Source: Verrucomicrobiota bacterium
GTDB taxonomy: Bacteria > Verrucomicrobiota > Verrucomicrobiia > Limisphaerales > AAA164-E04
Reading direction: 5' to 3'
Length of the DNA: 64,000 bases
Assembly (NCBI GenBank): GCA_047947115.1
Contig: CP170459.1
Location: 1,152,001 to 1,216,000, forward strand
Shown: in pieces, positions 28,698-43,364 of the stretch
Layout: every line of letters begins with the position of its first letter
How positions within the stretch are numbered: position 1 is the stretch's first letter
The notes under the pieces: model-generated
What the model was told of the DNA's origin: nothing
Databases searched by the model: none
What the model saw: the letters and a program-made list of their open reading frames with translations, nothing else
Translations under genes and position numbers: made by a program

Positions 28698-28884
28698 CTC
28701 TGGACTGCGGTAAGTCATTACCGCTTTGGATGCCATCGGTCAACGGTGTAGCTAACTGCTTCATACATGCCATCCATTTTTTAAACTGTAACCCTATGTG
28801 CCCAAGAATCTTCAAAGTGAATCGCGAGTGTTCCTTTGGTATAGAATCGTATCCAGAGCGGTAATGACTTACCGCAGTCCAGAG
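28698..28884. repeat. Inverted doublet of TGGA-type REP-like palindromes (REPIN/MITE-like)
   Basis: 28698-28731 and 28851-28884 are inverted copies matching at 33 of 34 nt. Confidence 0.85.
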
Positions 28885-29000: not shown

Positions 29001-29111
29001 ACTTTGATTTCCAACAAGCCCTTTTTCAAATGGAATTTTTGTTCCAAATTTGTGCTTTGACTGGGACCGGGAGTTCATTATTCTCCTCGGTCCCTATAAT
29101 CTATAGCGTCG

Positions 29112-30254
29112 ATGAGACAGTTCAGAACCATAGCATGGAATGCGTTTATGGAGTTGTTGCGTCAGCCGATTTTTCTTCTGCTGATGACAAGCTCTGCTGT
29201 GTTTGCCGTGTTCCTGGCCAGCACGCCCTACTTCGGTTTTGGTGATGATCCAAAACTGGTCAAGGACAGTGTGCTCGCGACCCTGTTGTTGGTCGGATTG
29301 TTCGGTGCCGTCATCAGTGCATCCGCCTCGGTAGCCCATGAAATCCGAACCGGAACCGCCCTGGTTGTTTTGTCCAAACCTGTGGGGCGCATCGTGTTCA
29401 TTCTGGGGAAGTATGTGGGACTCTCCGCCACCTTGGTGGTGTTGACCTATGTCAATCTGATGAGTGCATTGGTCGCCAGTAAGATTTCATTCACCGCTTA
29501 TGGTGAGGCTGATAAGACTGCTTTCTTTGTGTTCACCGGCGCCATCGCGCTGGCTTATTTGCTGGCTGGTTTTACCAATTACTTTCTGAATCGCACCTTT
29601 ACTTCAGATGCTGTGACTTTTGTAGTCATCCTGACGACCATTGCCTTTATCATTATCGCCAACATGGAACGCGCGGGTTCGATGTTTGAGGATCATATTG
29701 ATGTGGATTACCGATTGATTCCTGCAGCACTCCTCATTCTGTGTGCTTTTCTGCTGCTGGCGGGGTTGGCTTTGGTGTGTTCGACCCGACTTGAAATTGT
29801 CCCTACCTTGACCATTTGTACTCTGTTGTTTCTTGTTGGGCTCATGTCGGATTACCTTTTTGGGCGCTGGGCCGAGCCGGCATGGGTGGCTTTTCCGTCG
29901 CATCAATATGTCCAATCCGGACCCTTTACGGATGATCAGAAACAGTTATTGTCCACGGTCATCACCAAAGTCGATGCCAACGACAACAAGAAAATAGATT
30001 TGAATGAGATGGAATCTTTGGCCGCTGAAGACATCGAACAAATGAAAGCCGCTGGATTGGACAGCAAAGCCTGGGCCTCGGTGGTCTATGCCCTGGTGCC
30101 CAACTGGCAGTTATTCTGGCTGGCGGATGCATTGGAAAACGATAAGACGATTCCCTGGTCCTATGTGGGACGTTCGTTTACGTATGTCCTTTGCTATCTG
30201 GGAGCTTTGATGGCTCTGGCAGTGATGAGTTTTGAGAGTCGTGAATTGAATTAA
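29112..30254 (+). CDS. ABC-2-type transporter permease
   Basis: IAWNAFMELLRQP; EIRTGTALVVLSKPVGRIVFILGKYVG; multiple TM helices; C-terminal FESRELN. Confidence 0.85.
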   Translation: MRQFRTIAWNAFMELLRQPIFLLLMTSSAVFAVFLASTPYFGFGDDPKLVKDSVLATLLLVGLFGAVISASASVAHEIRTGTALVVLSKPVGRIVFILGKYVGLSATLVVLTYVNLMSALVASKISFTAYGEADKTAFFVFTGAIALAYLLAGFTNYFLNRTFTSDAVTFVVILTTIAFIIIANMERAGSMFEDHIDVDYRLIPAALLILCAFLLLAGLALVCSTRLEIVPTLTICTLLFLVGLMSDYLFGRWAEPAWVAFPSHQYVQSGPFTDDQKQLLSTVITKVDANDNKKIDLNEMESLAAEDIEQMKAAGLDSKAWASVVYALVPNWQLFWLADALENDKTIPWSYVGRSFTYVLCYLGALMALAVMSFESRELN

Positions 30255-30292
30255 CACTACCATCGACCTGGATCGATGGAACGAAGCGAAGT

Positions 30293-32212
30293 ATGGAACG
30301 CAATACACAGAAAAACGGAATGGTCAACATGCTCGGGCTCATGGTGGCCTGTGTCGTGGCGGCTGTTATCGGCAAGATCGCACAATCTGCGACGTCGGCT
30401 GTAGGCGCTGTTTTCCTGGGCACGGGATTCCTGGTGGCAGCCATCAGTTATTTCCAAATGCGCTTGGAAAACCGCGAACACCTGGAGAAGTTGGAATTCG
30501 AAGAGATTGCCAAGGACCGCAACAGGTCGGCGCTCTTTGAGGAATCCGGCGATGATACCTTCCTTGCCCGAAAGGCCAGGGAGCAATTTGAACGCTTCTT
30601 TGTGCCGACCTTTACCGCTCTGCTCGGTGTCGGTCAGGCGGTGGCCGCGTACATGCTTTGGAATTGGTTGCCGAACGCTTTGCAGCCTGATCTGGGGAAA
30701 GCTCCGATCGTCATGGTGTCCTTCGCCGCGCTCGCCCTCATCCTTTTCATGGTGGGTAAATACAGCGCAGGAGTCGCACGCATGGAAAAACTGCGTTTGT
30801 TGCGTCCGGGTGGTGCTTATCTACTGCTCGGATCGGTGATCTGTGTGGTGGTTGTGATTTCATTTGCTGGAGGGTGGTTCGAGTTCACGAAGTTGGACAA
30901 GTTGCTGGCCCAGATCATGGTTGTTTTGCTTGGACTATCCACACTGGAAACCTTCATCAACCTGATCCTCGAAATCTACCGTCCCCGTACTAAGGCCAAA
31001 GCCGAGCGCACACTTTACGAAAGCCGTTTGGTTGGTTTGTTGGGACAACCTGCCGGACTGGTGACCACTGCAGCACAAGCGCTTGACTATCAGTTTGGTT
31101 TTAAAGTTTCCGATACCTGGTTCTACAAGTTCCTCGAAAAAGCGTTGGCCTGGTTGGTGCTCTTTCAGTTGGGAATGTTGATGTTGTCGACCACGTTTGT
31201 GATCATTGACCCCAACGAACTGGGCCTCCTCGAACGCTTCGGCAAACCACGCACCAGTGGCGCCGTGTTGGAGCCCGGCTTACACTTCAAGCTCCCCTGG
31301 CCGATGGACAAGGTCTACCGCCATCCTGCCAAGGAACTTCGCAGTTTTAATGTTGGCTATGAAGAGTATGCGACTCCTGAAGGGGAAGATGATCATGGCG
31401 ATGGAGGACATTCCAACGATCAACAGCGAACCTTGCTCTGGACTGCCAGTCATTATGATGAAGAATTGAACTTCCTGGTCGCCAGCAGCGAGCAGCTCAG
31501 TTCTGATGACCAAAGCGGAGACAGCCAGGCGGTTCCGGTTAATTTCCTGTCCGCAGCTGTTCCGGTTCAGTATGTGGTGAAAGATTTTGAGGCTTGGTAT
31601 TACAACCATACCAATCCCGCTGAATTGCTCAAATCCATCGGCTATCGCGAAGTGGTGCGTTATTTCGTGAACGTGGACCTGATTGAAATCATGTCGACGG
31701 GACGTCTCTCGGCGGCGGATGCACTGAAGAAGAATATCCAGGATCGGGCCGACAACCTTGGTTTGGGGGTCGAAATCATCTTTGTTGGTTTGCAGGACAT
31801 TCATCCTCCGGTGGGTGACAAGATGACCCCGGTGGCGGCTTCTTTTGAAGATGTCATTGGTGCCGAACAGGAGATGGAAGCCAAGATCCTGGCTGCTGAA
31901 GGTTATGCGGCGGAAATCGTTCCGAAAAGCCGGGGTGAAGCCGCTGAATTGGTTGCCGCAGCTCAGGGCGCCAACTACGAGCGCATTCTGACCAGTGAAG
32001 CCCGTGCGAAGCAATTCAAGGATATGATGATTGCTTATGACTCCGCGCCGGATGTCTTCAAGCAGCGCAAGTATTACGATACCATCGCGAATTCGCTCAC
32101 CAATGTACGTAAATACATCATAGGCCCTGAGCAGGTGGACGAAACTTTCATGCTCAATTTAGAAGACAACATTCGTTATGACCTGCTCGATGCACGTCCC
32201 GAAGAACGCTAA
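30293..32212 (+). CDS. HflK-like SPFH protein with large N-terminal polytopic membrane domain
   Basis: About 7 TM helices, then ERFGKP..LEPGLHFKLPWPMD, LQDIHPP, ASFEDVIGAEQE, AEGYA. Confidence 0.85.
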   Translation: MERNTQKNGMVNMLGLMVACVVAAVIGKIAQSATSAVGAVFLGTGFLVAAISYFQMRLENREHLEKLEFEEIAKDRNRSALFEESGDDTFLARKAREQFERFFVPTFTALLGVGQAVAAYMLWNWLPNALQPDLGKAPIVMVSFAALALILFMVGKYSAGVARMEKLRLLRPGGAYLLLGSVICVVVVISFAGGWFEFTKLDKLLAQIMVVLLGLSTLETFINLILEIYRPRTKAKAERTLYESRLVGLLGQPAGLVTTAAQALDYQFGFKVSDTWFYKFLEKALAWLVLFQLGMLMLSTTFVIIDPNELGLLERFGKPRTSGAVLEPGLHFKLPWPMDKVYRHPAKELRSFNVGYEEYATPEGEDDHGDGGHSNDQQRTLLWTASHYDEELNFLVASSEQLSSDDQSGDSQAVPVNFLSAAVPVQYVVKDFEAWYYNHTNPAELLKSIGYREVVRYFVNVDLIEIMSTGRLSAADALKKNIQDRADNLGLGVEIIFVGLQDIHPPVGDKMTPVAASFEDVIGAEQEMEAKILAAEGYAAEIVPKSRGEAAELVAAAQGANYERILTSEARAKQFKDMMIAYDSAPDVFKQRKYYDTIANSLTNVRKYIIGPEQVDETFMLNLEDNIRYDLLDARPEER

Positions 32213-32263
32213 AACCATTTGATTTAAACCCGAAAGACCCAATTTTTAATTCGTATCCGACTT

Positions 32264-33187
32264 ATGAACAAACATCCGATATCGTTAGTCACCGGCGGCA
32301 TTCTACTGCTGATCTTCGCCTCGATCCTTTTCTGTTTCCAGGTGCGTCAGTCCGAAGTAGCCGTGGTCACCACGTTTGGAAAATACTCGCGCACCATCAC
32401 CGAACCCGGACTCCGGTTCAAGATGCCGTGGCCTATTCAGAAGGTGTATCGTTTCGACAACCGCCTTCAGAACTTCGAACGCAAGTTCGAGCAGACCACC
32501 ACGGGTGATGCCAAGCCATTGATCATTGAAGTCTACATCGGCTGGAAGATCAGTGATCCCGCCATCTTCCTGGAACGCTTTAATGGAGACGTTTCCAAGG
32601 CCGAACAAAACCTGGAAAGCCTGGTGCGCGACGCCAAGAACAGCGTCATCGGTCAGCATCCATTCCGCGACCTCATTTCTCCCCGCGAAGAGGATTTGAA
32701 ATTTGACGACATCGAACAGGAAATCGCCGAAGCCATCCGCGCCGAAGCCAAGGACGGTTACGGTATTGAAGTGGCTTTCGCAGGCATCAAGCAGATCGGA
32801 TTGCCGGAAAGCAACACCAAGAAGGTGTTCGAGCGTATGCGCGCCGATCGTCAGCGTCTGGTCAGCCAGTATCAGGGCGAGGGCGACAGCAAAGCCCGCA
32901 TGATCCGCTCCCAGGCCGAAGCCGAACGCGAGCGTATCCTCAACGAAGCACGCGCCAAGGCCATCGAAATCGAAGGTCAGGCCGAAGCGAATGCCAGCGA
33001 ATACTACAAGGTCTTCCAACAAAATCCCGAACTCGCCAAGCTGATTCTTGGCCTGGATGCTCTCGAGGCTGCCACCAAGGAAAAGACCACCATGGTGATC
33101 GATCCAACCACCCCTCCGTTCAACTTGTTGTCCGAAGGTTCTAAGGGCAATGGAGACAAGAAAACGGCTGAAGACCTCAAGTTCTGA
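32264..33187 (+). CDS. hflC: HflC-like SPFH protein
   Basis: Single TM; TTFGK..EPGLRFKMPWPIQKV.RFDNRL; KVFERMRADR; AIEIEGQAEA. Confidence 0.85.
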   Translation: MNKHPISLVTGGILLLIFASILFCFQVRQSEVAVVTTFGKYSRTITEPGLRFKMPWPIQKVYRFDNRLQNFERKFEQTTTGDAKPLIIEVYIGWKISDPAIFLERFNGDVSKAEQNLESLVRDAKNSVIGQHPFRDLISPREEDLKFDDIEQEIAEAIRAEAKDGYGIEVAFAGIKQIGLPESNTKKVFERMRADRQRLVSQYQGEGDSKARMIRSQAEAERERILNEARAKAIEIEGQAEANASEYYKVFQQNPELAKLILGLDALEAATKEKTTMVIDPTTPPFNLLSEGSKGNGDKKTAEDLKF

Positions 33188-33250
33188 GGAACCAACGGTG
33201 GTTCATAACACTCCGATTGGAAGAATTGATTTAATGAAGGTGAATGCGTC

Positions 33251-34393
33251 ATGAGTGACCCTAAAAAACCTGATCTGCCGGATTTGCCGGAGAAGATAGA
33301 TGTCAACGTTGGCAAAGAACCTGAGGAGGCGCCCATTGTGCGTCCCATGGAAGATTCCGGTACACGCGCCCTGGCCGATGCTTTGTCCAGCAGTTTCAAG
33401 ATCATCAAGGTACTGATGATCGGACTGGTGGTGATCTTCCTTGGCTCCGGAATCTTTACCGTGGAACCCAACGAAGTTGCAGTTGTGCTAAGATTTGGCA
33501 AGCCACTTGGTACCGGACCGGATCAAGTGCTCCAGCAGGGACTGCACTGGTCGTTTCCATCTCCGATTGATGAGATCGTCAAGATTCCCATCGGTGAAAC
33601 GCGTTCGATCATTGCGACCAATTCATGGTACGCTGTGACACCGGAACAGGAGATTTCAGGTCAATTGCCCTACGCCATGCCTTCATTGCGACCGGGTGTG
33701 GATGGCTATGCATTGACGGCGGATGGAAACATTGTTCACGTCCGGGCCACTGCTCAATACCTGATCAATGATCCGGTTGCCTATGAGTTTAATTTCCGTC
33801 AGACAACCGATTTGTTGAAGAATGCATTAAACAACGCCATTCTTTATGCCTCGGCTCAGTTTGATGCTGACGATGTGCTCTACAAAAATCGACTCGGTCA
33901 CAAGGAGAAGGTCAGGTCAAGGTTCCTGCAAATCATTCAAAACGCCAAGTTGGGCATTGAACTGCAATCCTTGGATGTGGTGACTTACCCGCCGCTGTTC
34001 GTCAAAGAAGCATTTGATACCGTGACCCAGACCGAACAGGACGTCAGCAAGATGCGCAACGAAGCTGAAGGGGAAGCCGCCGAAATCCTGCGCCGAGCCG
34101 AAGGCGAAGCCCAGGCGATCATCAACGATGGTCTGACCCGAAGCAACCGCATCACCAGCATGGTCACGGCCGATGCCAAAACATTTACGGACCTGCTGCC
34201 TCATTACGAAGCCGATCCTGAGTTTTTCCGCCAGCGCGCCATTATTGAGCGTATGGGTAAAATCCTGGAAAATTCGAATGACACCTGGATGTTGCCAAGA
34301 GCCAAGGACGGCCAAAACCAGGAACTGCGTTTGCAGTTGAATCGCGAACCCACCCTGACGGGAGGCAAGGACGAGGGAAGTGAAGAGAATTAA
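33251..34393 (+). CDS. hflK: HflK-like SPFH protein
   Basis: SGIFTVEPNEVAVVLRFGK, GLHWSFPSPIDE, LTADGNIV, PPLFVKEAFDTV, EAEGEA. Confidence 0.85.
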   Translation: MSDPKKPDLPDLPEKIDVNVGKEPEEAPIVRPMEDSGTRALADALSSSFKIIKVLMIGLVVIFLGSGIFTVEPNEVAVVLRFGKPLGTGPDQVLQQGLHWSFPSPIDEIVKIPIGETRSIIATNSWYAVTPEQEISGQLPYAMPSLRPGVDGYALTADGNIVHVRATAQYLINDPVAYEFNFRQTTDLLKNALNNAILYASAQFDADDVLYKNRLGHKEKVRSRFLQIIQNAKLGIELQSLDVVTYPPLFVKEAFDTVTQTEQDVSKMRNEAEGEAAEILRRAEGEAQAIINDGLTRSNRITSMVTADAKTFTDLLPHYEADPEFFRQRAIIERMGKILENSNDTWMLPRAKDGQNQELRLQLNREPTLTGGKDEGSEEN

Positions 34394-34460
34394 TTATAAG
34401 AAGTGAGTTCTGTTACTGAGAACAAGCGCCTAAACAAAACGTCTTAATCCATCTGAAGTC

Positions 34461-36485
34461 ATGCAAATCACCTCACTTTTAAGCCAGAAATCCGATGACC
34501 ACCATCATCATCACCACCATGATGATCACGATCATTGCGATGGTTGCGGCCACGACCACGAACATACCGAGATCCGGCTCAATCAAATCCTGATCGGTCT
34601 TCTGTTCATCATCAACTCCTTCATTATCCACTATTTCTTCGAGAACGGAAAAGTGGTGGGAGATGTCAACGCCATGATCGGTGCCGTCCTCCTGGGATAT
34701 CCGATTGTCTGGACCGCCATCAAAGACCTGCGCAAAGGACGCCTGAGCACCAATGAACTGGTTGCTTTAGCTGTGCTGGCCTCATTTGCTTCCGGAGAGT
34801 ATCAGGAATCGGGTCTGGTTGCCTTCTTCATGTTGCTGGGTGAAATCATCGAAACCCGCACCGCCGAAGGCGCACGCGCTTCCATCGAATCACTCGTCAA
34901 ACTGACACCCACCAAGGCGCGTCGTATCAAAGGCAACAAAGAAGAAGAAGTCGAAGTCAAAGATTTGAAAGTGGGGGATGTCATCCGTATTCGTCCCGGT
35001 GACAACATCGCTGCCGACGGTGTGATCACCAGCGGTCAGGGTTCCATCAACCAGGCCAACATCACCGGTGAATCCTTGCCCGTTGACAAAAAAGACGGGG
35101 ACGAAGTCTTTGCCGGTACACAGAACCTGACCGGTGTGCTTGAGGTCAAAGTCAGTCGTGCCGACGCTGACACCACACTCGGTCGCGTGCACGATCTGAT
35201 CCTTGCTGCGGAAAAGACCAAGTTGCCGATCATGCGCATTGTGGATCAATACATGGGATTTTACACTCCGCTGGTTCTTTTGGTAGGCGCTTTGGTCTGG
35301 GCATTCACCCAGGATTTGAGCCGTGTGATTACCGTATTCATCATTGCCTGTCCCTGTGCGTTCATTCTGGCCACACCGACCGCGATGGTGGCTGCGCTTT
35401 CTTCGGCGGCTCGCTTGGGGATCTTGATCAAGAACGTCGCGGACATTGAACTATCCGCCAAAATCAACGCTTTCATCTTCGATAAAACCGGAACCTTGAC
35501 GACCGGTAAACTGGCCGTCAGTCGACTTGCGCCACAGGACGGAGTCAAACCCGCCGAATTGTTGCACCTGGCTGCATCCGCTGAAAAATACAGCAACCAT
35601 CCGACTGCCAAAGCCTTGGCAAATCTTGCCAAAGAAGCAGGTTTGGAATTGTCCGAACCGGGTGATTTCAAGGAAACAGCCGGTAAGGGGATCACCGCCA
35701 ACGTGGATGGGGAAGCAATCATTGTAGGACGCGCCAATTGGTTGAAAGACAACGGGCTCACTGATGATTTTGCCAGCAGCGTGGATTTGAGCGAAGCGGA
35801 AGGTTACAGTCTTCTTTATGTGGCTCGCGGTGGGAAGTTCATCGGATGGGTGGGGCTTCAGGATCAAACCCGTACCGAAGCCAAAGAATCCCTCGCCGAA
35901 CTGGTCGACTCCGATATCCGTCGCATTGCGATGGTGTCCGGTGACCGTCAACCCGTTGCCGCTCGTGTAGCGCGTGAGATTGGTTGTGAAGAGGTTGTGG
36001 CCGAATGCCTGCCACAGGACAAAGTGAAATACGTCCACAAGATGAAGGCCAAAGGTTACCGCGTGGCCGTGGTGGGTGACGGTGTGAACGATGCCCCTGC
36101 GCTGGCTGCCGGTGATCTGGGCATTGCGATGGGCGCTGCCGGAAGTGAAGTGGCGATACATAGCGCGACCATTGCACTGATGAACAATGACCTTCGTCGT
36201 CTGCCGTTTCTGGTCAAACTTTCCCGCCAGACCCGGTCGGTCATCAATCAGAACTTTTTATTCGGCGTGGTTTTTGTGATCGGTGGTTTTGTCCTGGCAT
36301 CCATGGCCTACATCAACCCGATCCTAGCGGCCGTGTTGCACGTGGTCGGGTCGTTGTTGGTTGTGTTCAACAGTTTCAGACTAGTGCGGTCCGGAGAAGA
36401 ATTGGAACCATTCCAGCATTCCGAAGAGGAATCTTCCGAAAGCACGGAAACTACCGCGCCCAAACCGGCTACGCAGCCCGCTTAA
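34461..36485 (+). CDS. P1B-type (heavy-metal) P-type ATPase with His-rich N-terminus
   Basis: TGES, CPC, DKTGT, HP, GDGVNDAP; N-terminal HHHHHHHDDHDHCDGCGHDHEH. Confidence 0.95.
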   Translation: MQITSLLSQKSDDHHHHHHHDDHDHCDGCGHDHEHTEIRLNQILIGLLFIINSFIIHYFFENGKVVGDVNAMIGAVLLGYPIVWTAIKDLRKGRLSTNELVALAVLASFASGEYQESGLVAFFMLLGEIIETRTAEGARASIESLVKLTPTKARRIKGNKEEEVEVKDLKVGDVIRIRPGDNIAADGVITSGQGSINQANITGESLPVDKKDGDEVFAGTQNLTGVLEVKVSRADADTTLGRVHDLILAAEKTKLPIMRIVDQYMGFYTPLVLLVGALVWAFTQDLSRVITVFIIACPCAFILATPTAMVAALSSAARLGILIKNVADIELSAKINAFIFDKTGTLTTGKLAVSRLAPQDGVKPAELLHLAASAEKYSNHPTAKALANLAKEAGLELSEPGDFKETAGKGITANVDGEAIIVGRANWLKDNGLTDDFASSVDLSEAEGYSLLYVARGGKFIGWVGLQDQTRTEAKESLAELVDSDIRRIAMVSGDRQPVAARVAREIGCEEVVAECLPQDKVKYVHKMKAKGYRVAVVGDGVNDAPALAAGDLGIAMGAAGSEVAIHSATIALMNNDLRRLPFLVKLSRQTRSVINQNFLFGVVFVIGGFVLASMAYINPILAAVLHVVGSLLVVFNSFRLVRSGEELEPFQHSEEESSESTETTAPKPATQPA

Positions 36486-36513
36486 CAGCCAAGACGTCCA
36501 TCAAAGGAACCTT

Positions 36514-37761
36514 ATGGTAACCGAAAACACAGAAGCATTGATTGGTTCAAAAGGAACATCTGATAAAGCAGGAGATGTTGTCGTCTCAGTGCGAGGCCTG
36601 ACAAAGGTGTTCAAGGATTTCTGGGGACGCCCCAAGGCCAAAGCGGTCAACAACGTTGATTTTGAAGTGCGCCGGGGCGAAGTGTTCGGTCTGCTCGGAC
36701 CCAATGGTTCCGGCAAATCCACCACCATCAAAATGCTCCTGGGTCTTCTCTATCCCACCAAAGGGCATATCGAGGTGTTCGGACATTCTCCGCGTCACGT
36801 TGCTACAAAGTCACGTATCGGTTACCTCCCTGAAGAATCCTATCTGTATCGTTATCTTGATTCCAAGGAGACGCTCGATTTCTTCGGAAATCTGTTCAAC
36901 CTGAATTCGGTCGAACGTCGCAAACGCGCCGAGCAGTTGATCGAAATGGTTGGTCTGAACAACGCCCGCAGCCGACAGGTGGGAGAGTTTTCCAAGGGGA
37001 TGCAACGCCGTATCGGTCTTGCACAGGCTTTGATCAATGATCCCGATCTGGTGATTCTCGATGAACCCACTGCGGGACTTGATCCGATCGGTTGTCGCGA
37101 GATCAAGGACCTGATTGTAGCCCTGGCCAAGCGCGGAAAAACAGTTATTCTCAGTAGTCACTTGTTGTCTGATGTTGAAGATGTCTGTGACAGGGTGGTG
37201 ATTTACTATGGCGGAAAAATCCAGGCCAAAGGAACCTTGCAGGAACTGCTCACCGAACCGGATGTCACACGGATCACATCACCTGTTTTGAAACGGGAAA
37301 CGATGGACAAGATTTTGGACATCATCCGTTCAGAGATCAAATCCGACGATGTATCGATTGATAACCCGACGCAGAATCTGGAGAGTTACTTCCTGGGTGT
37401 GGTGAAAAATGCCATTGCACAGGAAACCACCACCTCTGGTGCAGTGGCTGGCAAGGTGGCCGAATATCTTCAAGGTTCGGCGGAGGAACAATCTGTTTCC
37501 CGCAACAAGATGTTGGATCGCCTGACCGTCGCCGAAGCCAAACAAGCGGCCCCTGCTCCGGCAGAAACGCCCGCTGAAAATGTGGATCACGCCAAGCTCG
37601 ATCAACTCGCTTCAAGCCAACCTGTTTCCAGTGCGGAACCGAAGGTTGAAAAGGCAGCGGCCAGGAAGGCTGATCTGGATGCGGCGAACGACAAGCTTTC
37701 CTCTCTGCTGGACGCAAGCTCCGACAAAGGGGCCAACGAATCTTCGGATAAAAAGGATTAA
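36514..37761 (+). CDS. ABC transporter ATP-binding protein with C-terminal extension
   Basis: GPNGSGKST, FSKGMQRR, ILDEPTAGLD, SSH. Confidence 0.95.
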   Translation: MVTENTEALIGSKGTSDKAGDVVVSVRGLTKVFKDFWGRPKAKAVNNVDFEVRRGEVFGLLGPNGSGKSTTIKMLLGLLYPTKGHIEVFGHSPRHVATKSRIGYLPEESYLYRYLDSKETLDFFGNLFNLNSVERRKRAEQLIEMVGLNNARSRQVGEFSKGMQRRIGLAQALINDPDLVILDEPTAGLDPIGCREIKDLIVALAKRGKTVILSSHLLSDVEDVCDRVVIYYGGKIQAKGTLQELLTEPDVTRITSPVLKRETMDKILDIIRSEIKSDDVSIDNPTQNLESYFLGVVKNAIAQETTTSGAVAGKVAEYLQGSAEEQSVSRNKMLDRLTVAEAKQAAPAPAETPAENVDHAKLDQLASSQPVSSAEPKVEKAAARKADLDAANDKLSSLLDASSDKGANESSDKKD

Positions 37762-37770
37762 AGAACGAAT

Positions 37771-39150
37771 ATGCAGGGATTGCTTGCCATCATAGGGTTG
37801 ACCATCAAGGCCGCCATCCGTTACCGGGTGGTGATCGTCCTGACAGGTTTGCTGCTGGCCTCGGTCGTGGTGTTGCCTCTGATGATCAAGCACGATGGTT
37901 CGGCCCAGGGTTTCACTCAGATTCTGCTGACCTATACCTTGAGCTCCATCACTTTCCTGCTTGGATTCGCCACTCTCTGGATTGCTTGTGGAAGCCTGGC
38001 ACGTGAGGTGCAGGAATGCCAGATGCAGATGCTGGCAGTGAAACCCATTCCCCGTTGGAAAATCTGGTTGGGAAAATGGTTGGGTATTGTGTTGATCAAT
38101 GCCGTTTTATTGGCCGTTTCATCGGGTGCCGTATATGGCATCACCATGTGGCGAGCCAGCCAGTTGACTGAAGATCAGCGCGCGGTCCTGGATGGAGAAA
38201 TTTTTGTGGCAAGAGGTTCGGCCAAACCGAACTACCCCGACATCGATCCTTACGTCGATGAATACATGGCCAAGCGCCTGGAGGAAAATCCCAACTTGGC
38301 CGACATGGATCCAACCTATGTGCGACAGCAAATGGTGGAACAGGTTAAAGTAGCCCATCAGATGGTCCGTCCCGGATATGTGCGTCGTTGGGTGATTCCC
38401 GTGGGATCACCTGAGTCGGTCAAAGATCAGGCCATGTATCTTCGTATCAAATTTTTCACCAGCCAACCTTACGACACCTCCACATACGATGTCCTTTGGG
38501 AAATCGGTCCACCTGAAACACCGCAGCGAGTGCTGCGTCAAATGGACATCTCTCCTGAAGCGCCTATAGAATTCGAAATCCCGCCCAATCTCGTGGATGC
38601 CAACGGGGTGCTGGTCGTTGATGTGACGAATGGCAGTCAGATTCCTTTGTTCTTCCCCATGGAGGACGGTATGGAGGCGCTTTACATGAAGGGTGGTTTT
38701 GGATGGAACTACATCCGGGGCATGGCAGTGGTTCTGTGCTGGATGAGTTTCCTGGCGGCAGTCGGATTGGCAGCGTCCAGTTTCCTGTCTTTCCCGGTGG
38801 CTTCATTTGTGTCAATTGCCTTGTTGATCGTTGGATTTTCCAGCGGCACCTTGAGCCAGGTGATCGAACAGGGTGGCATTGGTGGTATCAATCATGAAAC
38901 CGGAATGAAGGATGCACCATCCGCTTGGGATCATGTGGCCTTGCCCATCGCCAAGAGTGCGCTCAGCGTCATCAATCTGGTGAAGAATTTCTCACCGGTC
39001 AGCTTTCTCAGCACAGGACGGGATATTTCCATCGGCATATTGGCGACAGCCTTTGCCCAGATTGTTCTGGTGATGGGCGGCATATTTGCGGCCTTTGGCA
39101 TGTGGGCCTTTACCAGGAGTGAACTCGCAACCGCACAAGGAAACCAATGA
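37771..39150 (+). CDS. ABC-2-type permease with large extracytoplasmic loop
   Basis: REVQECQMQMLAVKPIPRWKIWLGKWLG; soluble insert of about 180 aa; C-terminal FTRSELA. Confidence 0.85.
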   Translation: MQGLLAIIGLTIKAAIRYRVVIVLTGLLLASVVVLPLMIKHDGSAQGFTQILLTYTLSSITFLLGFATLWIACGSLAREVQECQMQMLAVKPIPRWKIWLGKWLGIVLINAVLLAVSSGAVYGITMWRASQLTEDQRAVLDGEIFVARGSAKPNYPDIDPYVDEYMAKRLEENPNLADMDPTYVRQQMVEQVKVAHQMVRPGYVRRWVIPVGSPESVKDQAMYLRIKFFTSQPYDTSTYDVLWEIGPPETPQRVLRQMDISPEAPIEFEIPPNLVDANGVLVVDVTNGSQIPLFFPMEDGMEALYMKGGFGWNYIRGMAVVLCWMSFLAAVGLAASSFLSFPVASFVSIALLIVGFSSGTLSQVIEQGGIGGINHETGMKDAPSAWDHVALPIAKSALSVINLVKNFSPVSFLSTGRDISIGILATAFAQIVLVMGGIFAAFGMWAFTRSELATAQGNQ

Positions 39151-40664
39151 ACTTCATCACCGGAAAATATTCCAGATACGTTTTGAGCCTGTTCATGGTG
39201 ATCATGTTCGCGTGTGCCGGTTTTGTTCAGAAGGGGATGAACCATTCTCGTGCCGAGATGGGGTTGACCCGTCTGCAGCCGCTTGAAAACGCTCCTCCGG
39301 TTTTGGCGTTCACCACAGTGGCCCTCGGAGGATTTCGCGGTTTGATCTCCAACATGCTCTGGATCCGCGCCACGCAGCTTCAGGAAGACGGCAAATATTT
39401 CGAAATGGTTCAGCTCGCCGACTGGATCACCAAACTTCAACCGCACTTTGTCACCGTTTGGGTGCATCAGGCCTGGAATCTGGCCTACAATATTTCAGTC
39501 AAGTTTCCCGACCACCAGGATCGCTGGTTGTGGGTACAGCGGGGCATCGAGTTGTTGCGCGATTACGGACTGAAATACAATCCTCAGGAAACCCTCATCT
39601 ACCGCGAACTGGCCTGGTTTTTCCAACACAAAATGGGCGCCAACCTCGACGACGCCAACATGCTTTACAAAGCACAATGGGCCTCTGCCTGGGATGAACT
39701 TCTCAAGGATGGCAAACCTGATTACGATGTCCTGCTTAATCCACAGGAGCCCGAGGACAAGGAACGGTTGCGTATCATGTTTGAAGTTTACAAGACTGAT
39801 CCGGCTGTCATGCAGGAGGTCGATCAGGAATATGGCCCCTTCGAATGGCGTCTTCCCGAAGCGCACGCCATTTACTGGGCTTACCTTGGTCTGAAAGTTT
39901 CCGAACGTGAGAAGGATTACATTCAGTTGCGACGCGTCATTTTTCAAGGCATGCAACTGGCCTTTCTGCGAGGACGCATGATCGAATTTCCTGTCGCCGT
40001 ACCAGATGAACCGGGCGAATTCACCAAAGCCTACGAATACGGACCCAACCTCGAGATCATTGACAACACCAATCGCGCCTACGAAGAAATGATGGCTGCC
40101 GAAGAACAGTATTTCGACAACATCGGGACCGCCCACAAGAACTTCATCCGAACCGCCATCTATTTTCTCTACACCCACAATCGCATGGTGGAAGCCGAGA
40201 AATGGTATGACTACGTCCGCGAGAAATATCCGGATTCCATCGAAACAAGCCTGGAAGAATATGTGTTCGCACGAGTCGAGGAAGAATTTGGCAGCACTTC
40301 CCAGGATCGATTGAAAGCCATGCTGATGGGCTTTCTCGAGCGGGCCTTCCTGGATCTCGCAGTTGGGCAGGATGAGAAGGCCGTTGCCGGTGAATTGCTC
40401 GCCCGCAAGATGCGCAATCGCTACTACGATCAGATCACCGAAAGCCAGATCGCTCGCATCAAACTGCCGACCATCCAGGAAATGAAAGCCGAGCTTCTGG
40501 TTCGATTGCTTGATCCTGAAGAAGGACTCAACGAAATGCTGGTGCAACAACTTCGCACCCGACTGGGTTTGGCGGATGACTACGATCCCAAAGCAGCCCT
40601 TGGCGCTCTCAAGGCAAATCAACCGGTTGAGGAGCTGGAAGGACCACCGCCACCCGAGCTTTGA
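39147..40664 (+). CDS. Membrane-anchored hypothetical protein (helical/TPR-like)
   Basis: Single N-terminal TM; LGGFRGLISNMLWIRA...WITKLQPHF..VW..QAWNLAYNISV; ATGA-coupled to the permease. Confidence 0.8.
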   Translation: MNFITGKYSRYVLSLFMVIMFACAGFVQKGMNHSRAEMGLTRLQPLENAPPVLAFTTVALGGFRGLISNMLWIRATQLQEDGKYFEMVQLADWITKLQPHFVTVWVHQAWNLAYNISVKFPDHQDRWLWVQRGIELLRDYGLKYNPQETLIYRELAWFFQHKMGANLDDANMLYKAQWASAWDELLKDGKPDYDVLLNPQEPEDKERLRIMFEVYKTDPAVMQEVDQEYGPFEWRLPEAHAIYWAYLGLKVSEREKDYIQLRRVIFQGMQLAFLRGRMIEFPVAVPDEPGEFTKAYEYGPNLEIIDNTNRAYEEMMAAEEQYFDNIGTAHKNFIRTAIYFLYTHNRMVEAEKWYDYVREKYPDSIETSLEEYVFARVEEEFGSTSQDRLKAMLMGFLERAFLDLAVGQDEKAVAGELLARKMRNRYYDQITESQIARIKLPTIQEMKAELLVRLLDPEEGLNEMLVQQLRTRLGLADDYDPKAALGALKANQPVEELEGPPPPEL

Positions 40665-41138: not shown

Positions 41139-41945
41139 ATGCGATACATTGAACCCCACGGACACATGGTCAGCCGCACCACGGACGATTACCTGGCCAT
41201 GGTCACTGCCGGATGCCAGGCCGTCTGCGAACCCGCTTTCTGGGCGGGCTTCGACCGAAGCTCTGCCAATGGATTTTACGATTACTTTTGTCAGCTCACC
41301 GAACACGAACCCAAGCGCGCCGCCAAGTTCGGTCTTCCACATTATTCCTGGCTCTGCATCAATCCCAAGGAATCCGAAGACATCAAACTCGCCGACGATG
41401 TGCTGGCTTTGATTCCCGAATTCATCGACAAACCCAATGTTTTGGGTATCGGCGAAATCGGTCTGAACAAAAACAGTCGCAACGAATTGATCGTTCTTGA
41501 AAAACACATCCAGATTGCCGCCGAAAGCGATCAACTCATCCTGGTTCACACCCCGCACCTGGAAGACAAATACAAGGGTACCCGTTTGATCATGGATGCC
41601 CTGAAAAATGATTCCCGCATCAAACCCGAACGCTGCATCATTGATCACGTCGAAGAACACACCATCGGCATGGTGCTGGAAGAAGGTTTCTGGGCGGGCA
41701 TGACTCTTTACCCCGAATCCAAATGCAGTCCCAGCCGCGCCATCGACATGTTGGAGCGATTCGGCACCGAACGCATCTGGATGAACAGCGCTTGCGACTG
41801 GGGCATCAGCCGACCCCTGGCAGTCCCGCATACCGCTTTCGAAATGAAACAACGCGGCCACACCGCCGACTGGATCGACAAGGTGACCTTTCAAAATCCC
41901 ATCACCTTCATGAGCCAGTGCCCCAAATTCAAAATCAAACCTTGA
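41139..41945 (+). CDS. eboB: TatD-family hydrolase, EboB-like
   Basis: EPHGHMVSRTTDDY, EPAFWAG, GIGEIG, VHTPH, IDH, NSACDWG; next to eboE. Confidence 0.8.
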   Translation: MRYIEPHGHMVSRTTDDYLAMVTAGCQAVCEPAFWAGFDRSSANGFYDYFCQLTEHEPKRAAKFGLPHYSWLCINPKESEDIKLADDVLALIPEFIDKPNVLGIGEIGLNKNSRNELIVLEKHIQIAAESDQLILVHTPHLEDKYKGTRLIMDALKNDSRIKPERCIIDHVEEHTIGMVLEEGFWAGMTLYPESKCSPSRAIDMLERFGTERIWMNSACDWGISRPLAVPHTAFEMKQRGHTADWIDKVTFQNPITFMSQCPKFKIKP

Positions 41946-42191
41946 TTCGATATATTACGTTCATCAGGTAGGGCATGCCCTGCTGGCGTGTCCGTGGCTC
42001 TTGTTCATCTGGAGCATTGGATTTCCCTTTTTCACAGAAGTTCTCTCTTATGTTGCCTTAAAATCTGGTACATTCTGTTCATCCTGTCTGAAAACAAAAT
42101 CCACTGCAGCTCCACGCCTACCATTTGGCTTGCGAAAATGGTCTGTCTTCCTACATCATCATCCCGGACCAATTAACAATTCGAATCTGTT

Positions 42192-43364
42192 ATGAAATTG
42201 CAACACGGGCTGCATCTTGCATACTGCACGAATATCCACAGGGGGGAATCCTGGGAAAAAACCTTTCAAAACCTAAAGACTCACACCATGGCAGTCCGTC
42301 GCAAGGTGGCTCCCGATCAACCTTATGCCATCGGATTGCGACTCGGCGAAGAGGCTGCTCGTGATCTGAGCCAACCTGCCAACCTGAACGGTTTCAAGGC
42401 CTGGTTGGAACAAAACGACTGTTACGTATTTACCATCAATGGATTTCCTTACGGCAAATTCCATGGTACACGCGTCAAGGAAGACGTGTATCGTCCTGAC
42501 TGGACCACTCCCGAACGCCTGGCATACACCAATCTGCTATTCGACATTTTGGTCGAACTGCTACCCGAAGGCGTGGAAGGCAGCGTCAGTACGGTGCCGG
42601 TTTCCTACAAAGAATTCATCACCAGTGATCGCCAAGTCAAGGAAGCCCGTAAGAACATCTGGAAGTGCATCGAACACCTCGAACACCTCACTGCCCGTAC
42701 CGGCAAAAAACTGCACCTGGGACTCGAGCCCGAACCCATGTGCTATTTGGAAACATCCACCGAAGCTACGAAGTTCTTCGAACAAATGCGCCATGACCGC
42801 AAAGGAGATCTGCGCATCGATGAACACTTGGGCATCAATTACGACTGTTGTCATCTGGCGATCCAGTATGAAAATCCCAATGAAGCGCTTGGACGATTGG
42901 TCAGCCACAAAATCAAAATCAGCAAAATCCACCTCAGCTCGGCGCTCAAGGTCAATCCGACCATGGAAGTGCGGAAAGCCTTGCAAAGCTTTACCGACGA
43001 AGTCTATTTCCATCAAGTCATCGAGCGCCGTGTCGGAGGTGAGTTGGTTCGATACCGCGACCTGCCTGATGCTCTGGCAACGGAACCGATCCACGCGCCA
43101 CACCTGCCTGAAGAATGGCGCATCCATTTCCACATACCATTGCATCACCTGCCTGTCGGACTCTACGACAGCACCGTGGATCACCTGATCGGCACCCTCG
43201 ATTTCCTAAAATCCCATCCGGGGATCTGTTCCCACCTGGAGATGGAAACCTACACCTGGGAAGTCATGCCTGACTCCATGAAACAACGCAATGTGGTGGA
43301 CCAATTGGTAGACGAGTACCATTGGACACTGGAACAACTGTCAAGGCACGGCTTGATGGATTAA
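42192..43364 (+). CDS. eboE: Metabolite traffic protein EboE (xylose-isomerase-like TIM barrel)
   Basis: LAYCTNIHRGE, TINGFPYGKFH..VKEDVY.PDW, LEPEP, WRIHFHIP, HLEMETYTW. Confidence 0.9.
   Translation: MKLQHGLHLAYCTNIHRGESWEKTFQNLKTHTMAVRRKVAPDQPYAIGLRLGEEAARDLSQPANLNGFKAWLEQNDCYVFTINGFPYGKFHGTRVKEDVYRPDWTTPERLAYTNLLFDILVELLPEGVEGSVSTVPVSYKEFITSDRQVKEARKNIWKCIEHLEHLTARTGKKLHLGLEPEPMCYLETSTEATKFFEQMRHDRKGDLRIDEHLGINYDCCHLAIQYENPNEALGRLVSHKIKISKIHLSSALKVNPTMEVRKALQSFTDEVYFHQVIERRVGGELVRYRDLPDALATEPIHAPHLPEEWRIHFHIPLHHLPVGLYDSTVDHLIGTLDFLKSHPGICSHLEMETYTWEVMPDSMKQRNVVDQLVDEYHWTLEQLSRHGLMD

Follow-up and report, generated by a model that had tools for sequence, protein, structure and literature searches.

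We analyzed a locus of eight genes at positions 29,112 to 40,664 of a 64,000-nucleotide stretch of DNA from a Verrucomicrobiota bacterium (assembly GCA_047947115.1, contig CP170459.1), referred to below as the window. The locus is composed of two separable modules: a cassette of three SPFH genes and a gene for a P1B-type ATPase (genes 2-5), and an ABC module (genes 1, 6, 7 and 8) in which this cassette is nested. The reading we favor, to which we give an even chance, is that the SPFH trio scaffolds a trace-metal pump, that the ABC system is co-expressed with it, and that the modules form a long-kept fusion. Both modules have counterparts that are known but little understood; their nesting, and its reach across lineages of the Planctomycetes-Verrucomicrobia-Chlamydiae (PVC) superphylum, we did not find described in the open-access literature. 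The genes are as follows.

29112-30254, forward strand: gene 1, 380 amino acids, ABC-2-type permease with about eight hydrophobic segments, PilI-like (ABC module)
30293-32212, forward strand: gene 2, 639 amino acids, HflK-type SPFH protein, its N-terminus extended by six additional membrane helices (cassette gene 1)
32264-33187, forward strand: gene 3, 307 amino acids, HflC-type SPFH protein with a single membrane anchor (cassette gene 2)
33251-34393, forward strand: gene 4, 380 amino acids, HflK-type SPFH protein with a single membrane anchor (cassette gene 3)
34461-36485, forward strand: gene 5, 674 amino acids, P1B-type ATPase, likely HmtA-type (cassette gene 4)
36514-37761, forward strand: gene 6, 415 amino acids, ABC ATPase, PilH-like (ABC module)
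37771-39150, forward strand: gene 7, 459 amino acids, ABC-2-type permease with a large extracytoplasmic domain (ABC module)
39147-40664, forward strand: gene 8, 505 amino acids, N-terminally anchored, TPR-like helical solenoid (ABC module)

The original prediction, made from the letters of the window, had described eight co-oriented, tightly packed genes of these families, and this description holds: the gaps from gene 1 onward are 38, 51, 63, 67, 28 and 9 bases, followed by a 4-base overlap between genes 7 and 8. Matches over the Pfam cut-off were three Band_7 domains (PF01145, genes 2-4), E1-E2 ATPase, ABC_tran (PF00005, gene 6) and ABC2_membrane_2 (PF12679, gene 7). Gene 1 matched PF12679 with E 1.7e-4, below the Pfam cut-off, and gene 8 had no match in sequence searches of Pfam, NCBIfam and PDB.

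The modular composition is apparent from loci in which only one of the modules is found. Plasmids of Rhizobium tumorigenes, Paraburkholderia sprentiae, Klebsiella aerogenes and Burkholderia ubonensis carry genes 2-5 by themselves, with the order unchanged. Metal-related neighbors lie beside them: a zinc ABC transporter and a PCu(A)C chaperone in Paraburkholderia and DUF4198 in Klebsiella. Conversely, many genomes have the ABC genes, or subsets of them, without the cassette. An intact 1-6-7-8 operon free of it is found in loci L119 and L130, and in the window the cassette is placed precisely where genes 1 and 6 of this operon would meet. Since the modules are found separately, as proteobacterial cassettes and as cassette-free 1-6-7-8 loci, we conclude that the cassette sits inside an older 1-6-7-8 operon. 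Two further stand-alone cassettes were read by eye: the one in L127 (genome G063) adjoins an apparent TonB receptor with ExbB/ExbD, and the one in L131 (genome G120) an apparent COG0523-type GTPase and a MerC-like protein; similar genes in L030 give MerC and FtsX matches.

We then followed both modules across genomes, locating cluster genes in fetched loci by tblastn; as related genomes are kin and not independent, the counts are descriptive and not statistical tests. Gene 8 was detected in 39 relatives out of 41, spread over 20 families of the order, and close relatives of it carry the name Verrucomicrobia, one of them as subdivision 3. Among 20 loci fetched around gene-8 matches in relatives, 15 contain all eight genes in the order of the window, so that the gene order to which the original prediction pointed is not a matter of chance. 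The other five comprise one locus cut by a contig edge, two paralogue loci, one 4-kb contig and a split cluster with genes 6-8 only (L026). A gene-8 profile scan of all species genomes yielded 554 loci, of which the best 80 were examined: 18 have the full order, 7 have genes 2-8, 7 are rearranged, 8 are partial and 40 have no cassette gene, many of these last being short contigs or short-form relatives. In the seven rearranged loci, which going by their titles are from Planctomycetes, gene 1 is inverted and the genes are still together. Unrelated genes are often inserted between cluster members, so that gene order is not frozen.

A sample of 151 genomes of the phylum gave 58 with the membrane domain of gene 2, 59 with the pump clade and 99 with the gene-8 family (all including the genome of the window). 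Each of the 57 other genomes with gene 2 carries the pump, in 55 cases within 7 kb, and each also carries gene 8, in 40 cases within 12 kb; contig breaks may explain part of the remaining 17. Two families have the cassette throughout (24 of 24 and 14 of 14 genomes), and many of these genomes are 2-3 Mb in size. With the same queries, neither gene 2 nor the pump clade was seen in 47 genomes from nine other families of the window's class. One 2-Mb genome (G110) has two cassettes and two copies of gene 8 (C1:861019, C1:1639305).

So tight a linkage might suggest, in line with the original prediction, that all eight genes encode one machine: pump and ABC system would lie together within an SPFH ring, and the substrate that the ABC system moves or extracts would be loaded with metal. 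The full order in 15 of 20 and 18 of 80 loci, the cohesion of the seven rearranged loci, the presence of gene 8 in all 57 cassette-bearing genomes and the fact that permease gene 1 can stay with the cassette when the cluster splits (L133, L137) are in agreement with this. However, the proteobacterial cassettes have no ABC genes, the gene-8 family occurs without the cassette in about 41 of the 151 genomes, and in at least four of the genomes whose flanks were read (G063, G102, G120, G141) cassette and ABC module lie at separate places with unrelated flanks. Moreover, the genome of the window itself has a second, cassette-free set of genes 1, 7 and 8 (C1:3959246-3963043), without an ATPase of its own, whose members are 47% (gene 1, C1:3962081-3963043), 35% (gene 7, C1:3960676-3962073) and 40% (gene 8, C1:3959246-3960679) identical to those in the window. 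We therefore consider a single eight-part machine unlikely.

At the other extreme, the arrangement could go back to a single ancestral insertion of the cassette into a PilGHI-type operon, kept by inertia and sharing nothing but a promoter. The exact placement between genes 1 and 6 of an operon that is otherwise intact, and cassette-free in L119 and L130, is what such an event would leave behind, several lineages have split the cluster, and the kinship of the genomes makes the counts non-independent. Nevertheless, we regard inertia as improbable, since the linkage lasts across classes of Verrucomicrobiota and into Planctomycetota, survives rearrangement, and is maintained in loci whose order is not frozen.

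For the trio, sequence comparisons indicate that it is a distinct HflK/C lineage tied to a single pump clade. Scored with the NCBIfam models for HflK and HflC, genes 2-4 reached 135.1 bits (cut-off 159.4), 130.7 (TIGR01932, cut-off 134.4) and 151 (TIGR01933, cut-off 159.4); none attains its cut-off and two are near misses. In a quick tree of 71 rows, computed with no bootstrap, genes 2, 3 and 4 each group with the proteobacterial cassette gene of the same position, with values of 97, 92 and 82 in the Shimodaira-Hasegawa-like approximate likelihood-ratio test (SH-aLRT). Separate from them stand the canonical proteins, seven HflK rows with SH-aLRT 99 and seven HflC rows with 93, among which are those of E. 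coli and a pair from the genome of the window. This pair, one of the loci contributing to the eight Band_7 genes of the genome, is located at C1:4779685-4781649 and is 23-24% identical to the trio. Both a distinct branch for the trio and a separate hflKC, two points that the original prediction had suggested checking, were found. The pair itself clusters with Vibrio and Persicobacter plasmid pairs, not with that of E. coli.

The predicted structure of gene 2 (predicted local distance difference test, pLDDT, 81.8) has seven long helices preceding the SPFH strands, the usual anchor and six more, in accordance with the fusion to a domain of about seven transmembrane helices proposed originally. 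Its best fold match is E. coli HflK (7vhq_E, E 3e-13); a Foldseek search with the model gave only SPFH matches and nothing for the extra helices. Given a cytoplasmic N-terminus, the SPFH domain would be periplasmic, as in HflK/C. Two histidines of gene 2, H387 and H504, are invariant among 38 orthologues and, being located in the part predicted to be periplasmic, could be metal ligands.

The descent of all three proteins from HflK and HflC raises the possibility that the trio is a second HflK/C set modulating FtsH, with the pump as a regulated substrate or as a supplier of zinc to this zinc protease, which HflK/C are known to bind (PMC11761036; statements cited here and below refer to the available parts of the papers). 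There is no ftsH among the eight genes, and the sole full FtsH of the genome is encoded at C1:3376487-3378292. The original prediction had pointed to the missing ftsH, but this is uninformative, as hflKC is not adjacent to ftsH in E. coli either and need not be. Yet the genome already has a canonical-type pair, which branches with E. coli-type HflK/C, the trio remains below the HflK/HflC cut-offs, and its tie to a single pump clade is near-absolute. Further, in the available part of the study, a P. aeruginosa mutant lacking the trio was without the pyocyanin and swimming phenotypes of hflKC (PMC13086221). An FtsH modulator thus appears distinctly unlikely to us. In contrast, a transporter as client of the trio is plausible, because the trio is non-canonical and travels with the pump in 57 of 57 genomes. 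Of the scaffold originally proposed, this part stands, while its extension to all eight genes as one indivisible system does not, given that the modules also stand alone.

The pump encoded by gene 5 is scored above cut-off by TIGR01525 (558 bits), with a histidine-rich N-terminus, intact TGES, DKTGT, HP and GDGVNDAP motifs, and a CPC motif (C297, C299). In a quick tree of P1B pumps, 17 cassette pumps split from 10 others with SH-aLRT 100, even though eight of these ten had scored equally high by BLAST; in a fuller model with three outgroups the branch had support of 97/95. Identity among the pumps is 65-80% across the order and 35-36% to the proteobacterial cassette pumps. P1B-1 pumps (CopA) bind their metal through Tyr-Asn in transmembrane helix 7 (TM7) and Met and Ser in TM8, and P1B-2 pumps (ZntA) through Lys in TM7 and Asp in TM8 (PMC4285229). 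Gene 5 corresponds to neither of these ordinary exporters: TM7 lacks the YN pair and TM8 the CopA ligands, and Val and His are found in place of the Lys and Asp of ZntA. The histidine in TM8 (H627) is present in 95% of 38 orthologues, and a TM8 LH motif together with CPC is common to the proteobacterial cassette pumps.

By gene order and protein lengths, the cassette of the window is likely the same as that of the PA2439-PA2435 (hmtA) locus of P. aeruginosa, where it is partly characterized, a fact not known to the original prediction. The region PA2434-PA2439 contains three genes of the HflK/C family and hmtA (PMC4542158). Zinc depletion raises PA2437-2439 and hmtA 5.6- to 14.4-fold (PMC4542158), the proteins of the cluster likewise increase (PMC11761036), and Zur was found bound at the PA2439 promoter (PMC8531726). 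HmtA has been reviewed as a Zn/Cu importer (PMC8456098). The trio itself, PaFlo5-7, is patchy among species and was read as horizontally acquired, and its deletion had only slight effects on biofilm and virulence in the sections available, in which neither a pump nor a test with metals is mentioned (PMC13086221). That study tabulates trio lengths of 631, 347 and 347 amino acids in Burkholderia and 666, 346 and 337 in P. aeruginosa; the accession and organism columns of its Table S1 seem misaligned, and we took lengths by organism alone. The Burkholderia lengths match those of the Burkholderia trio that groups with the window genes.

Turning to the ABC module, we find that its genes are, by sequence searches, the closest kin of ABC genes in pilus loci. 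A Candidatus Manganitrophus locus with a short gene-8 relative also has genes for a prepilin, an ABC ATPase, a permease, PilZ, a secretin-type protein and pilM. A profile of short gene-8 forms and two window N-termini, used against 61 Nitrospirota genomes, matched a 293-residue protein in one of them with E 3.4e-4, the match covering the conserved motif at the N-terminus; a further eight weak matches covered generic TPR parts only. The gene for this protein comes after pilB, pilT, pilC and genes for a kinase, a regulator and three pilins, and is itself followed by genes for an ABC ATPase and a permease. In the myxobacterial pil cluster, pilG-pilH-pilI take the corresponding place. PilGHI have been treated as ABC-like parts of that cluster (PMC6060248), and M. 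xanthus PilGHI (TCDB 3.A.1.144.5) is listed as required for pilus assembly and PilA export (PMC3924187). Relatives of the 293-residue protein in the PilG position occur in 37 of the 61 genomes, with the short gene 8 of Manganitrophaceae as the weakest match, and 25 such loci all have the ATPase, 17 of them with a pilin within 1.5 kb.

Gene 6 is the best match of the Nitrospirota pilus-locus ATPase in the genome of the window (52%, 240 bits, against 172 for the next), and in five of five Nitrospirota genomes its own best match adjoins the PilG-position gene, so that these are best matches in both directions. For the pilus-locus permease, genes 1 and 7 and their paralogues are four of the top five matches (E 2e-9 to 6e-3), with gene 1 at E 4e-8. 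Profile-profile comparison of gene 8 with 25 PilG-position proteins gave a probability of 98.3% (E 1.4e-14) with short members included and of 44% (E 2.3e-4) with long members only, suggesting that gene 8 may be distantly related to them. The similarity of the ATPases makes the stronger link to pilus loci. GldAFG was rejected as an identity for the module, the scores being far below cut-offs; by eye, a GldAFG-looking ABC operon lies 8 kb from the second gene 1-7-8 set.

The model of gene 8 (pLDDT 91.5) is nearly all helix, and fold searches have TPR domains on top with Z-scores of 11-12.7, a level common among helical repeats. Its family has 2743 representatives at 50% identity; a search with representatives returned only near family members, none of them named, and shorter relatives, when searched for, were mostly fragments. 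We disregarded the Atlas name "IRE (iron responsive element) family protein", an automatic assignment.

Under the favored reading of a scaffolded pump with a co-expressed ABC system, the three SPFH proteins would, by analogy to HflK/C structures, build a periplasm-facing K-C-K' ring over a patch of membrane. The client of this ring would likely be the neighboring P1B pump and not FtsH, with the six extra helices of gene 2 as the obvious candidate for a tether. The pump would supply a trace metal, zinc or copper, if its metal and direction are those of HmtA. The PilGHI-type ABC system, likely co-expressed, would probably handle a membrane-anchored envelope substrate, such as pilin-like proteins; the genome encodes PilB, PilT and PilC homologues, at least six full-length PilB/GspE-type ATPases and 82 prepilin-motif matches. 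Any coupling between the two modules would likewise be an inference. In its boldest form, which we consider a long shot, a cage of three HflK/C-type subunits would hold the metal pump and the PilGHI-type ABC ATPase instead of FtsH, as a non-proteolytic workshop where pilin-like or other anchored proteins of the envelope would receive metal and be pulled from the membrane, and which would be core machinery in large parts of the PVC superphylum.

Several observations weigh against the favored reading. On the side of the cassette, the SPFH tree gives genes 3 and 4 modest support (92 and 82), and CPC with the TM8 histidine does not fix the metal, because a Bacillus plasmid pump outside the clade has both. 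In one study hmtA mRNA was not zinc-repressed, as far as the available part goes (PMC8531726), and the fixation of the cassette in two families, with 65-80% pump identity across the order, would suit a housekeeping role better than that of an accessory locus for starvation. On the side of the ABC module, the window cluster contains no pilin gene, and the PilG-position profile has no direct significant match to gene 8 (E 0.68 among 16,217 open reading frames); its best match in the genome is an unrelated frame of 132 residues (E 1.8e-5). In Brocadiae and one further genome, which is GC-rich, what comes directly after the short ABC module is an H+-pyrophosphatase and not pilins (13 of 80 loci, e.g. 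L054:7728-13205), so that pilins need not be its only partners. The substrate class of PilGHI-type systems is also unsettled, because Geobacter xapD, located beside pilin genes, has been described as a sugar transporter (PMC5585712). Finally, the links to P. aeruginosa and to M. xanthus were both drawn through stand-in sequences.

As to expression, the stretch is present in 20 RNA runs from 15 studies, with single RNA contigs spanning genes 2-6 or 3-6; another region is covered nearly as completely by these runs, so that these contigs establish neither one transcript nor its level. A promoter scan placed a site at 29057-29084, yet it returned 3 sites where 8.9 are expected by chance. Upstream of gene 1 there is a 39-nucleotide inverted repeat (window 28698-28736 and 28846-28884, 92% complementary, 109 nucleotides apart), of which the rest of the genome has only one partial copy (C1:894744). 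Downstream of the cluster are a TatD-like gene and EboE (window 41139-43364); compared by eye, the N-terminus of the TatD-like protein closely resembles the one in the protein immediately upstream of the stand-alone cassette in G120 (L131:12004-12804).

Searches of the open-access literature gave us no account of the eight-gene set or of a PilGHI-type module in the PVC superphylum, and the available part of a survey of prokaryotic SPFH operons does not mention an ATPase (PMC2636767). Few dedicated clients of bacterial SPFH rings are known beyond FtsH and NfeD, and a pump clade that is almost never found without its three SPFH genes is a candidate for a further one. This may bear on the working of HmtA, an atypical member of the P1B pumps for which metal import is reported, and is testable now, as a trio-deletion strain and zinc-limitation data already exist for the likely counterpart in P. 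aeruginosa. For gene 8, the kinship to PilGHI would give a large PVC family that has no name its first clue to function, and would tie it to a pilus ABC system of open mechanism.

In comparison with known systems, the trio resembles the HflK/HflC of the E. coli complex with FtsH (7vhp, 7vhq, 7wi3, 9cz2) in its SPFH domain and coiled coil and in having K-type and C-type subunits. It differs in comprising three subunits, two K-type and one C-type, one of them with six extra membrane helices, in falling on separate branches and in being linked to a pump. The PA2439-PA2434 locus likewise has its three SPFH genes in a single operon, with a P1B ATPase coming next (PMC4542158, PMC13086221); it has no ABC system, whereas the cassette of the window is found throughout whole families and lies within an ABC operon. 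With M. xanthus PilGHI, compared through the Nitrospirota stand-ins, the ABC module shares an ABC ATPase (gene 6), an ABC-2 permease (genes 1 and 7) and a membrane-anchored helical partner (gene 8), and Geobacter XapA-D may be similar to it as well. Unlike PilGHI, the module of the window has two permeases, a partner of almost double length, a four-gene insert and no adjoining pilin, a neighbor that its relatives in Manganitrophus and Nitrospirota do have.

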